From IMG/VR virus record IMGVR_UViG_3300018412_000010: 64,000 nt of DNA, one strand, 5' to 3'. This document shows positions 44,187 to 63,726 of this stretch, in pieces. Position 1 is the stretch's first letter. The number at the start of each line of letters is the position of its first letter. The position numbers were made by a program, and so were the translations under genes. The notes under the pieces were generated by a model. That model was not told where the DNA came from, searched no databases, and saw only the letters and a list, made by a program, of their open reading frames with translations. This DNA comes from a virus.

Positions 44187-44561
44187 GTGAATATCATGGA
44201 TTTCAAAGAACTTAAAAACATAAAAGATTTTACATATGAATCACATAACTTCGTAGAAGATAAAGATGTTGAAGTGGAAAATGTAAACGAAAATAAATAT
44301 CAAGTATATAAATATATGACAGAACCAGTATATTTTTCGGCGGCATATGGTGCCAGAGTTGGTGGTTCTGCTGAAAATGATGGTGGAACACAAAGAGGAA
44401 AAAGATCAGAAAAAATATCATGGTATGATGGCGAGTTTATATCTAGTATATCTGACGGTGGCGGGATTTCAATAAACTATAATGATAACGATGATTTTGA
44501 AAAATGGATGTGTAGTTTTTTCAAGAAACCTAAAAACGATTATGAAGTAGAACTTATATAG
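44187..44561 (+). CDS. Hypothetical protein with C-terminal YxVELI tag
   Basis: Ends NDYEVELI*. Confidence 0.6.
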   Translation: MNIMDFKELKNIKDFTYESHNFVEDKDVEVENVNENKYQVYKYMTEPVYFSAAYGARVGGSAENDGGTQRGKRSEKISWYDGEFISSISDGGGISINYNDNDDFEKWMCSFFKKPKNDYEVELI

Positions 44562-44569
44562 GTGATTAT

Positions 44570-44794
44570 ATGAGAATAATAGAATCTGGTAATATACAAT
44601 TATATACAACAAGATGTATTAGTTGTAAAAGTTTAATAGAGTTTAATGAGGGTGAAGAAAATTATGTCTTTGACCAAGATGGAATTTTTGGTTCATGTGA
44701 AGATTGGAGTATTAAATGCCCTATGTGTGGGACTAAGATTCCAACAAGAAGTATTTGCCATCGTCAATACTATGATTGGAGAACTAAAGTATAA
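44570..44794 (+). CDS. Small zinc-ribbon protein
   Basis: CISC...IKCPMCG. Confidence 0.6.
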   Translation: MRIIESGNIQLYTTRCISCKSLIEFNEGEENYVFDQDGIFGSCEDWSIKCPMCGTKIPTRSICHRQYYDWRTKV

Positions 44795-44808
44795 TCGAAA
44801 GGATTTAT

Positions 44809-45024
44809 ATGTGGAAAGATTTAGAAGTAGTCCATCCAGTTAAGCATGATGAATATTTGGTTACATTATACTATCCAAGAATATCAACATCTGCTAAGTG
44901 GTATAATAAAGAACAACAATTTTTAGATAGCAACAATAATAAGTTAAGTGTTATTGCGTGGGATTATATGCCTAAACCATTTCTATTTGAATATGAGAAA
45001 ATAGCGGGTGAATTTGATGAATGA
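44809..45024 (+). CDS. DUF551-like protein
   Basis: MW...P...EYLVT...VIAW..MPKP pattern. Confidence 0.6.
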   Translation: MWKDLEVVHPVKHDEYLVTLYYPRISTSAKWYNKEQQFLDSNNNKLSVIAWDYMPKPFLFEYEKIAGEFDE

Positions 45025-45160
45025 TGAAAAGGATGTATGTTGTGTAAATTATGAAGCTGAATATTATAGACAGTGTAAACAAATATGTGAACTTGCAGAA
45101 GAAGTTGAAAGGCTTAAACAATCTTTGATAAATGTTTGTTTAATGTTGGGTAAGTAATAA

Positions 45161-45556
45161 ATGGAAGATATTAAAGAATATTTTAATAAAAATAATATTC
45201 CTTATAATGATATTGATGAAAATATAAAAATTCTTGTATATTGTTTTAATAAAATAGGATTAACAACAGAGTTTTCATGCGAAGGTCATAAAAACGGAGA
45301 ATGTCCGACGATAATTTTTACAGAAGAAGTAAATGATGTAGTTATAGATAAATATATGCATATACTTTCGAATGGCGAATATATTGGGGAATTTAAGCAG
45401 TGGATAAGAAGCAGAGACCCCAATAATAAAGAAAATAAGAATTATATTTTAAAAAATTATATGTTTACAATAGATTCCGCATTATTTAATCAAGAAAGCA
45501 AATGTGATTTAATTAATAACGCAATAAGGATAATTTGTGAAATGTATAAATTGTAA
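45161..45556 (+). CDS. Hypothetical protein (NxIGxxTxFSCEGH family)
   Basis: ID..I..LV..FNKIGLTTEFSCEGH, paralogous to 37866..38282. Confidence 0.6.
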   Translation: MEDIKEYFNKNNIPYNDIDENIKILVYCFNKIGLTTEFSCEGHKNGECPTIIFTEEVNDVVIDKYMHILSNGEYIGEFKQWIRSRDPNNKENKNYILKNYMFTIDSALFNQESKCDLINNAIRIICEMYKL

Positions 45557-45570
45557 TTATGGAGTAAGCA

Positions 45571-46026
45571 ATGAATAACGAATTAATGTTTTCAAGTAAT
45601 GATATGACATGGGAAACGCCACAAGACTTATTTGATATTCTAAATTCTGAATTTAATTTCACTTTAGATGTATGCGCTTTACCACAAACTGCTAAGTGTA
45701 AAGAATATTATACACCAGAGATTAATGGTTTAATTCAAGACTGGAAAGGTGTATGTTGGATGAACCCACCTTATGGCAGAGGAATTAACCAATGGTTAAA
45801 GAAAGCATATGAAGAAAGTTTAAAAGGTGCTACGGTAGTGTGTCTGATACCATCAAGAACAGATACCAAGTATTGGCATGACTACTGTATGAAGGCTTCT
45901 GAAATTAGATTAATCAAAGGAAGATTAAAGTTTGGTGAAGCTATAAATTCTGCACCATTTCCAAGTGCAATTATAGTATTTGATAAAGATAATGGTAACT
46001 TAAAAGTAAGTGGGTACGAGGTGTAA
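45571..46026 (+). CDS. Phage DNA N6-adenine methyltransferase (Dam-like)
   Basis: WETP..LF..L..EF.F.LD, WMNPPY, LIPSRTDT, GRLKF, APFPS. Confidence 0.92.
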   Translation: MNNELMFSSNDMTWETPQDLFDILNSEFNFTLDVCALPQTAKCKEYYTPEINGLIQDWKGVCWMNPPYGRGINQWLKKAYEESLKGATVVCLIPSRTDTKYWHDYCMKASEIRLIKGRLKFGEAINSAPFPSAIIVFDKDNGNLKVSGYEV

Positions 46027-46384
46027 TATGGTAATTGATTTTGGTAGACTTAAAAGAATATTAGTAGACTATTGTGAATGGAATATTACAGTAGAAGGTT
46101 GGGTAATTTCGGACGAGAAGCTGGATGATTATTTGGATAGGCTTGATGAATTGGAAAAGGAGCAAGGCAAATGATTAAGATAGAATTAAAAAACACATCA
46201 CAAGCTTTGATTTATAAAAATGTAAAAAATACATATGAAAAAGGTTCTTTCTATTGTATCTATATAGAAGATAATGTGGTAAAGATTCCAATTCAAGATA
46301 TTTTTAGAATTGAAGAAAATTATAAATTTAATTAATTAATATTAATAAAAATAAATAAAAAATAAGAAAAAAGAGGTATAATAT

Positions 46385-46642
46385 ATGAGAAGCTATCCAA
46401 GAAGATGTTATGTTGGAATGATGTTTTTCACAGAAAGTAAGACCAGAAGAAATACAGCATATGAAGCTAAAGTAATAAAAGAAGAATATAAAAAGTCTTT
46501 AAATAAAAATGTTCAAAATAAGGTATTATATAAAAAAGATGTAAACAAGAGTTGCGTAGGAACAGTCATTGTGGTCACAGTATGGCTTGCAATGGTTGTA
46601 TTCCTATTCAACATACCTTATATATTTGCCGGTAATGTATAG
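46385..46642 (+). CDS. Membrane protein
   Basis: C-terminal hydrophobic helix; GAGG RBS. Confidence 0.55.
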   Translation: MRSYPRRCYVGMMFFTESKTRRNTAYEAKVIKEEYKKSLNKNVQNKVLYKKDVNKSCVGTVIVVTVWLAMVVFLFNIPYIFAGNV

Positions 46643-46654
46643 AAGGAGATTTAT

Positions 46655-62108: not shown

Positions 62109-62164
62109 ACTTATACAACCCTTTCGTTTCATTTTAGAAAAGCACGAATTATACGTGCTTTTAA

Positions 62165-62362
62165 CTATTTCTTCCAAATATAGTAGCATCCATTTCCAGT
62201 GGCGGACATATATGAATGCCCAAGGTCTGCAATATGTTTTTCGAAATCCTTGCGTTCCTTTATTTCTTCCTGTGTCGCCAGATAAAGCGGAAATAGAACC
62301 TGTTTGCCATTTAGGAAATCTTTCATATTCTTTTCATTCCGTTGTTCTAATGTCATTTTCAT
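62165..62362 (-). CDS. Hypothetical protein
   Basis: GAGGT RBS; 65 aa. Confidence 0.55.
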   Translation of the reverse strand: MKMTLEQRNEKNMKDFLNGKQVLFPLYLATQEEIKERKDFEKHIADLGHSYMSATGNGCYYIWKK

Positions 62363-62391
62363 TTCTTTACCTCTCAAAATAAATCCTAAAT

Positions 62392-62628
62392 TTAAACAAC
62401 CCCGCTGTCTAAATATCTAAACGTAAACGATTTCTTAAACCACTTTTTAATACATGGTGTATTTCCTTCAAGGCAACTAACTACTTCAATTGCGCTAACT
62501 TTAAATTCTTTGCAGATATCAAAAACTGATTTGAAAACTTCGCCAGTTTCAAGACAAATAATATCACGTTCTGGAAGATTTAAAGGTCTATATACCTTTA
62601 TTCTGACGTCTTTCTTTTTTCTTCTCAT
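62392..62628 (-). CDS. NUMOD1-like DNA-binding small protein
   Basis: IICLETGEVFKS...I..CL.G...F.Y pattern. Confidence 0.55.
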   Translation of the reverse strand: MRRKKKDVRIKVYRPLNLPERDIICLETGEVFKSVFDICKEFKVSAIEVVSCLEGNTPCIKKWFKKSFTFRYLDSGVV

Positions 62629-62642
62629 TTCATTTACCTCCC

Positions 62643-62963
62643 TTAATAGATGTAGTCCATTAGCAGTTTAGCTTTGTATATTTCCGAAGCCAATCTTTTA
62701 CACTGTATCATCTGTTTGTCTGATAATTTCTTTCCAGACTGAATCTGTTTAACAAAACTACCTATATATGCATATCCGCTTATAAGACTGTAATCAATAG
62801 CAATTTTAAGCTTTTCAATATCCAATAATTTTAGCGTATCTTCTATGTCATTAGAAGATTTAAAATACGTAGTCCATTTAACAGACCTTCCATAAATAGC
62901 TTCCCTTGATTGGTTGCTATTTACTTCAATAGCGATTCTCATATATCCATTATGTAATTTCAT
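62643..62963 (-). CDS. Hypothetical protein
   Basis: SF..Q...GK.LSDKQ motif; GGAAGG RBS behind promoter cassette. Confidence 0.6.
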   Translation of the reverse strand: MKLHNGYMRIAIEVNSNQSREAIYGRSVKWTTYFKSSNDIEDTLKLLDIEKLKIAIDYSLISGYAYIGSFVKQIQSGKKLSDKQMIQCKRLASEIYKAKLLMDYIY

Positions 62964-63010
62964 CTTTTTACCTTCCAAAGTAAATATCTCTTTCTTTAAC
63001 TTATATATAT

Positions 63011-63069
63011 ATTATATCACTTTTTAGATACTATGTCAAATTAAAAAAGACCACAAAAGTGGTCTTTTT
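63011..63069 (-). promoter_or_regulatory. Terminator-promoter cassette 3
   Basis: AAAAAGACCAC-TTTT-GTGGTCTTTTTT then TTGACA-17-TATAAT (TG). Confidence 0.8.
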
Positions 63070-63070
63070 A

Positions 63071-63364
63071 TTATAATTTATTTACGTATGGCGTTAAGAT
63101 ATCAATTACATCACCCTCTATTATCAGTGATTCTGGGCAACCGTTTTTAAGCAAGGTATCTTTTATGTTTCTATTTACAAGAACCTGCGCCATGATTTTA
63201 GTTCCACGCCGAACATAGTCAGCGCCCATAGAACTTATTGTAAATTTCTTTTCTGGTAAATAGAAAATTAAATCATTCTTACCAATTCCGGATTTCAATA
63301 AATCATCTTTATTTTTTATTGCAAATTTATCGCCGGCTATAACATCCTTAAAATCATTCTTCAT
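63071..63364 (-). CDS. Hypothetical protein
   Basis: 97 aa, AGGGGTG RBS. Confidence 0.55.
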   Translation of the reverse strand: MKNDFKDVIAGDKFAIKNKDDLLKSGIGKNDLIFYLPEKKFTISSMGADYVRRGTKIMAQVLVNRNIKDTLLKNGCPESLIIEGDVIDILTPYVNKL

Positions 63365-63384
63365 TTTTTAACACCCCTTTTTTA

Positions 63385-63726
63385 TCAAATTAAATCGACG
63401 CAATATTCACCCGCAATATGAAGTTGTGATTTTTCATGGTCATAACTAAAATTAGTTATAATATCAAATTCAACGTATCTTTTTATACTAGCATATACAT
63501 TTTCAATTTCAGACCAACTGAAAACACCATTTTCGGCATTAAGATTTCTATTTCCAGTATTTTCATGCAATGCATAATGACCTTTGCTATATTTATATAT
63601 TATTGGATAGTATTTATCAACCTTCATATAGTTTCTTATATCGCTATCCTTTATTTTTTTTACCTTTATAAGAGCTACAATATGGTGGATGCTTGGATCA
63701 AATCTTTCTATTTTCATTTCTGTCAT
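63385..63726 (-). CDS. YYPI-family protein with C-terminal tag
   Basis: VDKYYPIIY; ends GEYCVDLI*. Confidence 0.65.
   Translation of the reverse strand: MTEMKIERFDPSIHHIVALIKVKKIKDSDIRNYMKVDKYYPIIYKYSKGHYALHENTGNRNLNAENGVFSWSEIENVYASIKRYVEFDIITNFSYDHEKSQLHIAGEYCVDLI

Follow-up and report, generated by a model that had tools for sequence, protein, structure and literature searches.

The stretch of viral DNA considered here (64,000 nucleotides of IMG/VR record IMGVR_UViG_3300018412_000010, hereafter the window) raises the question of why many small proteins of different sequence, encoded close together, should end in the same few residues. The window belongs to a 169-kb contig of an uncultured phage, with about 30% G+C and strong Shine-Dalgarno sites, and about 87 kb of this genome was covered in the analysis. 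A sequence-only reading of the same DNA had pointed to 18 open reading frames (ORFs) whose products share a short C-terminal peptide, and had proposed that this peptide is an address label by which many early effectors bind one hub through beta-strand addition.

A shared C-terminal tail on small proteins

All 18 ORFs are present, with the ends that had been read for them (Table 1). Counting backwards from the last residue (-1), 17 of them match the pattern [YF]x[VI][DENS][LI][ILV]-stop; the exception is the ORF at 54569-54877, which ends FEVVLL with V at -3. The real length of the consensus is eight residues, N-x-[YF]-x-V-[DE]-L-[IL]-COOH. Among 29 tails of the window phage, N occupies -8 in 18, D or E stands at -3 in 21 and the final residue is always I, L or V (29/29); position -7 holds K (8), E (4), S (4), Q (3), N (3) and other residues. 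Constraint is found at -6, -4, -3, -2 and -1. We estimated the role of chance by counting the six-residue pattern internally in the window proteins (18,744 positions in about 100 genes). Three internal matches were found, from which 0.016 C-terminal matches would be expected, compared with the 18 observed (Poisson P about 1e-48).

The tagged proteins are 65-124 amino acids long, soluble and mostly acidic (median pI 5.1). Their genes form runs of seven (57244-59249), five (60230-61824) and three (54569-55554), and the untagged small hydrophobic proteins reported to be interleaved with them were found at 55955, 56251, 59302, 59724 and 61830. Several soluble proteins between the runs also lack the tail, and about half of the small array genes are untagged, several small membrane proteins being among them. 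The tagged array extends beyond the right end of the window, where other assemblies of the same phage carry 14 further tagged ORFs (12 in L001 and 2 in L248), bringing the total for the window phage to at least 32; looser tails such as YVVGLI, YEVALV, YVAELL and YKTELI occur among these extra ORFs. At 2589-2900 of L001 lies a decayed paralogue of a tagged family (57543, L001_2954 and L001_5183), whose frame is broken and whose tail, NQYNVELI-stop, persists in another frame past an internal stop.

Selection acts on the tail as a peptide

The information content over 30 tails has a period of three, with high values at codon positions 1 and 2 of Y, V, D/E, L and I. The Val codon carries 2.5 bits at its first position vs 0.11 bits at the wobble position, the Asp/Glu codon 1.95 bits vs 0.13 bits at the wobble position, and the x codon is nearly unconstrained. 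Codon use in the tails is that of the genome; as the earlier reading had observed, Val is written GTA, GTT, GTG and GTC, Leu codons are mixed, and all three stops are used in the 18 ORFs (TAA eight times, TAG seven times and TGA three times). Downstream of the tail, conservation is confined to the stop codon and one G in the ribosome-binding site that follows. Tails are also present where no gene follows, at 57244, which is succeeded by a terminator, and at 51993, which has no gene downstream. In L008, a contig from a second tag-bearing phage, five CVV[DE]LL tails are encoded by differing codons. Given this codon-position conservation, the background codon use, the tails that precede terminators and the synonymous variation in L008, selection acts on the tail as a peptide and not as DNA, as had been claimed.

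The same observations bear on a nucleic-acid signal, in which the conserved 3' end would serve as a joint for recombining gene cassettes or as an RNA element that couples translation, and the peptide would be a by-product. Such a signal would suit the dense packing of the genes, where the next ribosome-binding site lies 5-12 nt past the stop, as well as the rapid turnover of gene content. However, it would not leave wobble positions and an entire codon nearly free of information beside informative positions 1 and 2, with codon use at background level, nor would it allow identical L008 tails to be written with different codons; the tails ahead of terminators and the unconserved DNA past the stop speak against it as well, and we regard it as very unlikely.

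The tail as an add-on to unrelated bodies

By blastp, the 18 bodies fall into four families with more than one member and five singletons, and 54 tagged proteins from four phage lineages, compared as tail-less bodies, form 23 clusters. Profile-profile comparison by hhalign among 22 body groups linked only the SH3-like sets (C with H and C with E) and one other pair, all other probabilities lying below 30%; the claim that the bodies are largely without mutual similarity was thus borne out. Over the five constrained positions, tails of unrelated families are 64% identical, vs 66% for tails within families whose bodies are only 29% identical.

The sequence-only reading had suggested testing whether homologues in other phages lack the tail, and this was found to be so for the SH3-like family. 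A HMMER profile of this family (57800, 58398, 58643 and 60527), run against 1.8 billion representative proteins, returned 149 relatives. The single-domain relatives outside the clade terminate at ...ELExV followed by a few unrelated residues, so that these homologues are without the extra 7-8 residues; the extra N-x-[YFL]-x-V-[DE]-L-[IL] occurs in only seven rows of the alignment, namely the four window proteins and P0002, P0007 and P0010 of related phages. PHROG profiles likewise stop before the tail. Scans of all 19 candidates (the 18 ORFs and a ferritin-like protein described below) with Pfam and PHROGs gave no named family and only unnamed PHROGs for the SH3-like set.

The AlphaFold2 model of the protein at 58398..58625 is a confident SH3-like barrel, with a predicted local distance difference test score (pLDDT) of 82-91 in the body, while residues 68-75, corresponding to the tail, score about 55 and form no secondary structure. 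Among solved structures, the best match to the model is YorP of the Bacillus subtilis phage SPbeta (PDB 2HEQ; template modelling score, TM, 0.73/0.66), followed by PsaE-type domains. YorP resembles the largest tagged family in being a small SH3-like protein of an SPbeta-type phage; the match is, however, limited to the body, and the members of this fold family outside the clade end before the tail. For family D, the structure atlas held a poor model and gave no lead.

Taken together, these comparisons give good support to the view that the tail is a modular add-on to unrelated bodies. That all bodies would instead share one ancestry or fold, with the tail as its integral last strand, is hardly credible: groups C, E and H and some singletons do share an SH3-like N-terminal KxGDxV motif, but families A, B, D, F, G and I and many singletons stay below 30% hhalign probability mutually and against the SH3 set, SH3 homologues elsewhere lack the tail and the tail is unpacked in the model, so that the outcome named beforehand as fatal to the proposal did not come true.

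Relatives, dialects and restriction to one clade

Relatives were sought through the untagged YonV-like helicase gene that lies within the array (Table 1). The contig L008, whose helicase is 75% identical, carries at least 18 tagged ORFs in 20 kb, and for only four of these could a homologue be detected in the 74 kb compared from the window phage. The bodies turn over quickly, whereas the tail is retained.

The tails of L008 have their own dialect, [YC]-V-V-E-L-L. At -3 there are 13 E and 3 D in L008, against 7 E and 14 D in the window phage (P=0.007), and V or I occupies -5 in 13 of 18 L008 tails, against 2 of 29 in the window phage (P=5e-6). L at -1 is favoured in L008, whereas the window phage prefers D at -3 and I at -1 and leaves -5 free. 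In addition, C stands at -6 in 5 of the 18 L008 tails (P=0.006), on three unrelated bodies. A third lineage (L005, L007, L331 and L333) uses L-x-V-E-L-[IL], with Leu at -6 in four of its five tails, and a fourth fragment, L004, carries the tails EYQVELL and EFSVELI. The dialect shifts in step across unrelated proteins of one genome, a pattern that we read as co-evolution with a single reader.

The tag was not found outside these lineages. Neither the tag nor any other shared C-terminal hexapeptide was detected in a complete 140-kb relative (helicase 47% identical, 212 genes), and no tag and no other shared tail was detected in 44 GTDB species-genome loci or in 44 metagenome loci (1,155 genes); these untagged controls, the complete relative and 88 related loci, together hold about 2,600 genes. 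In the YonV scans of metagenomes and GTDB, the relatives were all at most 52% identical and all untagged. Two degenerate DNA patterns for the tail gave single, chance-level matches in IMG/VR, with none of 170 loci holding more than one tag, and neither the portal nor family A had a relative in IMG/VR. Searches against cultured phages gave no match, either by tblastn with families A, B and D or by blastn with the array. Since tags occur in related lineages and none was found in the complete relative and the 88 loci, the tag is an innovation of one narrow phage clade.

In a 159-kb relative (L010, 10001-11203), the YonV homologue translates correctly only if TAG is read as Gln, and some members of this phage group therefore appear to use stop-codon recoding.

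Comparison with known terminal motifs

Several known motifs had been proposed as models for the tail. A variant of the QL[SD]LF clamp-binding motif does not hold, failing at its first position, where Q is found at -7 in only 3 of 29 tails, and at the terminal F, which is found in none (0/29); the tail, ending V-[DE]-L-[IL] with D/E at -3 in 21/29, departs equally from the QLxLxL form of the motif. Clamp-binding tails (T4 gp43, gp33 and gp55 on gp45, and the bacterial motifs) resemble it in being short, hydrophobic C-terminal peptides on unrelated proteins. These systems, however, dock few clients on one known hub, whereas about 35 clients are found here, with Gln rare, an L-[IL] end in place of L-F and a conserved acid at -3.

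The proposed class III PDZ pattern, [DE]-x-hydrophobic-COOH, fits formally (P-2 in 21/29 and P0 in 29/29), but no PDZ domain was found in about 55 window proteins scanned. PTS1 (SKL), ssrA/ClpX degrons and PDZ ligands share with the tail the use of a few residues and a free carboxylate, a single receptor and portability between unrelated proteins. They differ in that the tail is constrained at more positions, and to our knowledge no signal of the PTS1, ssrA/ClpX or PDZ type is known from a phage proteome. An ssrA-type degron, a non-polar C-terminal tripeptide (L-A-A type) without a nearby acid, does not match a tail with a conserved acid at -3. The type VII secretion signal YxxxD/E was likewise rejected: the spacing from Tyr to the acid is three (Y-x-V-D) vs four, and the bodies are SH3-like or of other kinds, not helical and WXG-like. 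The FNLD box of class I lanthipeptide leaders, F-N-L-D-L-V, resembles the tail F-N-V-E-L-L; as a lanthipeptide box or RRE ligand the tail was rejected, the motif being C-terminal here and not in an N-terminal leader. A link to radical-SAM chemistry and RRE domains was rejected as well, because the radical-SAM/SPASM genes belong to a sugar-synthesis module beside the tail fibre gene.

Full-text literature searches found no published description of such a tail in the papers covered. By its sequence, then, the tail would lie outside every known motif family tested, fitting PDZ only formally, though it would act like a C-terminal docking or sorting signal.

Search for the reader

Pfam scans of about 55 window proteins detected no PDZ, TPR or other peptide-binding domain. 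Only three proteins are common to both tag-bearing phages and absent from the 140-kb untagged relative, namely those encoded at 43800-44129, 48252-48533 and 48631-49836. The last of these, DUF262-like, is distantly homologous to a protein of L009, a further untagged relative. Its gene and the adjoining gene for a 93-amino-acid protein (48252-49836, minus strand) have a G+C content above that of their flanks, with identities to L008 of 59% and 43%.

The protein at 43800-44129 is kept in L008 although almost all neighbouring small genes differ, and it may be considered a weak candidate for the reader. Its model (pLDDT 80) consists of two strands, two helices and four strands; as a reader it was not retained, since no solved structure matches this fold and nothing ties the protein to peptides. 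The ClpP-like serine protease at 30454-31020, in which Ser, His and Asp were found by eye in the expected motifs, was rejected as a tag-specific partner because a homologue lies at the syntenic place in the untagged 140-kb relative (G001:C1 43083-43589).

Possible roles of the tail

The explanation that we favour, and hold to be probable with real room for doubt, is a portable C-terminal tag read by one common reader. The tail would be a short linear motif, appended without a linker to many unrelated small, soluble and mostly acidic proteins. One common, clade-specific reader, either phage-encoded or peculiar to the host lineage, would recognise it, with contacts to the hydrophobic residues at -6, -4, -2 and -1, to the acid at -3 and to the terminal carboxylate of a tail that is free and extended. 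One fate would thus be common to about a fifth of the phage proteins.

Several points weigh against this explanation. The single common partner is inferred, and beta-strand addition would be a hypothetical mode of binding; the search among the window proteins scanned yielded no reader. The exchanges between dialects are conservative (D/E, I/L and Y/F/L/C) and could reflect drift under loose constraint instead of co-evolution, and recent duplication could lie behind some of the dialect sharing. The comparison covered only about 20 kb of the L008 phage and just over half of the genome of the window phage. The structure model represents one tagged family only and, because few aligned sequences span the tail, its low confidence there is weak, at best modest, evidence for a flexible tail. 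Finally, the tail might have a common physico-chemical role without a specific partner, for instance as a strand that associates the tagged proteins.

As to the shared fate, docking or co-localisation on a hub is a tentative choice, somewhat likelier than degradation, with packaging into virions as a minor option. In its fullest form, which we put forward equally tentatively, a phage-encoded, clade-specific receptor would bring together about a fifth of the proteins, mainly early effectors that evolve fast, at a single site or machine, giving the phage its own addressing system, into which a new gene could be plugged by gaining a few C-terminal codons.

Timed proteolysis is a possibility of lower standing. 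The tail would then be a degron through which an AAA+ protease (host ClpX, ClpC, ClpE, Lon or FtsH, perhaps together with the ClpP-like subunit of the phage) keeps dozens of early proteins uniformly short-lived, so that early functions are cleared at the switch to late development or lysogeny. The sigmaA-type promoters, which make the tagged genes probably early, are consistent with this, as are an exposed tail flush with the C-terminus and hydrophobic at its end, and a phage-encoded ClpP-like protease outside the head module; a transient contact between enzyme and substrate would also explain how one reader serves about 35 clients. However, the ClpP-like gene is syntenic in the complete untagged relative, and a host protease as reader would not readily explain why that relative and 88 related loci from similar hosts are untagged. 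Known ClpXP C-terminal degrons, of the ssrA LAA type and the MuA type, have no conserved acid near their end, and acidic substitutions stabilise ssrA-tagged proteins; the conserved acid at -3 is unlike both of these degrons.

It is improbable that the tails serve as strands for self- or hetero-association, pairing mutually or with SH3-like bodies into mixed oligomers. Their hydrophobic residues alternate in the way typical of an amphipathic beta-strand, and SH3-like domains, which bind peptides in other contexts, make up about 40% of the tagged proteins. Against this, the tail is not docked on its own SH3 body in the monomer model, a purely homotypic role would not keep one sequence across unrelated families, and the conserved acid and the strict C-terminal position point instead to a pocket that reads the carboxylate.

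A capsid-targeting peptide, by which small proteins would be loaded into the HK97-fold head and injected along with the DNA, is a quite improbable explanation. In its favour is the only tag-like end outside the early arrays, that of a ferritin-like protein encoded beside the portal, and ferritin-like proteins are classic encapsulin cargo. Ten homologues of this protein (60-74% identity) end ...YFIV(x), and the window copy has three extra residues, EVI, which complete F-I-V-E-V-I. Encapsulin cargo-loading peptides and the T4 capsid-targeting sequence are similar in that a short terminal peptide sends diverse proteins into an HK97-fold shell. The encapsulin cargo peptide has a different sequence (G-S-L type), and the T4 capsid-targeting sequence lies at the N-terminus and is cleaved; the tail thus differs from these systems in sequence, position and gene context, and the tagged genes look early, not late. 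Apart from this one possible client, the tagged proteins are encoded 20-55 kb away from the head genes and follow sigmaA-type promoters of the host type, and are not encoded with the shell genes, whereas packaged proteins are usually late. Thirty-five different cargo species would be without precedent, and the ferritin-like end differs at -2 and may be a coincidence.

The ferritin-like protein is a possible 19th member of the tagged set. Its model in the structure atlas is four-helical (pLDDT 0.92, TM 0.9 to ferritins); related phages, the untagged one among them, have homologues, and such a gene is unusual in a head module. If its tag is real, the protein shows how a tag arises, and its three-residue extension may be a tag gain caught in the act, which would be a slight nudge toward a link with the capsid.

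A portable tag with one common reader would matter beyond this phage. Functions for host takeover and anti-defence reside mainly in small early phage proteins, most of which are orphans, and a shared tail offers a handle on them: one peptide could be used to fish for the common partner, to define a class of about 35 proteins, and as a portable targeting tag in infected cells. Turnover of bodies, a tail that is kept and dialects by genome are the picture expected of a receptor co-evolving with many clients, and the system could therefore be a tractable model for the spread of short linear motifs through a proteome.

Phage identity, gene context and neighbouring genes

Gene content indicates that the window phage is a large SPbeta-like phage. 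It carries SPbeta-type markers (the YonV-type helicase, PF27199 YonV_C; YomO, PF27287; YomN, PF27376) and a 968-amino-acid polymerase-like protein (phrog_8308 at 1e-103) with syntenic homologues in relatives; the portal, the large terminase and the capsid protein are distantly like those of large Bacillus siphoviruses. The nearest contigs in the YonV scans were mostly metagenome-assembled genomes of Clostridia, and the phage probably infects Clostridia.

Because the arrays lie behind sigmaA-type promoters, the tagged array genes are probably transcribed early by the host polymerase, which fits the early expression that the sequence-only reading had assumed. Terminators separate the units of the array (Table 1).

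Table 1. Coordinates of the tagged ORFs, promoters, terminators and other genes discussed in the text.
Feature	Coordinates	Strand	Remarks
Tagged ORF, 124 aa	44187..44561	+	Ends NDYEVELI; sole tagged gene on the + strand; in ThyX/methylase operon
Tagged ORF, 107 aa	51993..52316	-	Ends KKYIVDIL; last in operon
Tagged ORF, 102 aa, SH3-like family E	54569..54877	-	Variant tail NNFEVVLL
Tagged ORF, 93 aa, family A	54910..55191	-	Ends NNYAVSLI
Tagged ORF, 116 aa, family B	55204..55554	-	Ends GKYEVDLL
Tagged ORF, 94 aa, family A	57244..57528	-	Ends SSYKVDLI; terminator, not gene, comes next
Tagged ORF, 81 aa, SH3-like	57543..57788	-	Ends NQYAVDLI
Tagged ORF, 82 aa, SH3-like family C	57800..58048	-	Ends NKYEVNLL
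Tagged ORF, 108 aa, family B	58058..58384	-	Ends DNYAVDLV
Tagged ORF, 75 aa, SH3-like family C	58398..58625	-	Ends NEFKVDLL; modelled by AlphaFold2
Tagged ORF, 75 aa, SH3-like family C	58643..58870	-	Ends NKFNVELL
Tagged ORF, 122 aa, family D	58881..59249	-	Ends NSYQIDLI
Tagged ORF, 93 aa, family F	60230..60511	-	Ends SKYNVELL
Tagged ORF, 86 aa, SH3-like family C	60527..60787	-	Ends NQYEVDLI
Tagged ORF, 100 aa, singleton	60784..61086	-	Ends NKYKVDLI
Tagged ORF, 119 aa, family D	61102..61461	-	Ends NAYNVDLI
Tagged ORF, 117 aa, family D	61471..61824	-	Ends NEYTVDII
Tagged ORF, 113 aa, family B	63385..63726	-	Ends GEYCVDLI
Ferritin-like protein, possible 19th member	22824..23339	-	Directly after portal gene; ends NYFIVEVI
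ClpP-like serine protease	30454..31020	-	Between PhoH/PIN and exonuclease genes, away from capsid genes
Untagged acidic protein, 109 aa	43800..44129	+	47% identical in L008; absent from untagged relative
Untagged YonV-like helicase (PF27199 YonV_C)	53164..54411	-	Inside array; marker for finding relatives
Putative sigmaA-type promoter	51484..51512	-	12/12 matches, extended -10 box; sequence match; precedes leftward array
Putative sigmaA-type promoter	56184..56212	-	12/12 matches, extended -10 box; sequence match; precedes leftward array
Putative sigmaA-type promoter	57187..57215	-	12/12 matches, extended -10 box; sequence match; precedes leftward array
Putative sigmaA-type promoter	63011..63039	-	12/12 matches, extended -10; predicted to drive tagged array
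Intrinsic-terminator-like hairpin	57226..57245	-	Directly after tagged gene 57244-57528
Second terminator-like hairpin	56219..56241		

Other genes were noted in or near the arrays. NAD-salvage-type genes lie in or beside the tagged arrays of two lineages (L248 1211-1777 and L005 642-2016). The set comprises a cytidylyltransferase-like or NMN adenylyltransferase-like gene, an isochorismatase/nicotinamidase-like gene and a gene for a 271-amino-acid protein, putatively phosphoribosyltransferase-like by eye, which suggests possible counter-measures against NAD-depleting defences. Two paralogous GNAT acetyltransferases in the array (L001 360-782 and 8770-9195) end alike in KYYKLN[LI], a conserved terminus distinct from the tag. 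Beyond the left edge of the window (L067 15176-18670), the gene for a 965-amino-acid tail protein is followed by two radical-SAM/SPASM genes, a gene for a CMP-sugar synthetase-like protein and one for a NeuB-like sialic-acid synthase, a module that hints at nonulosonic-acid modification of the fibre or of the host surface.

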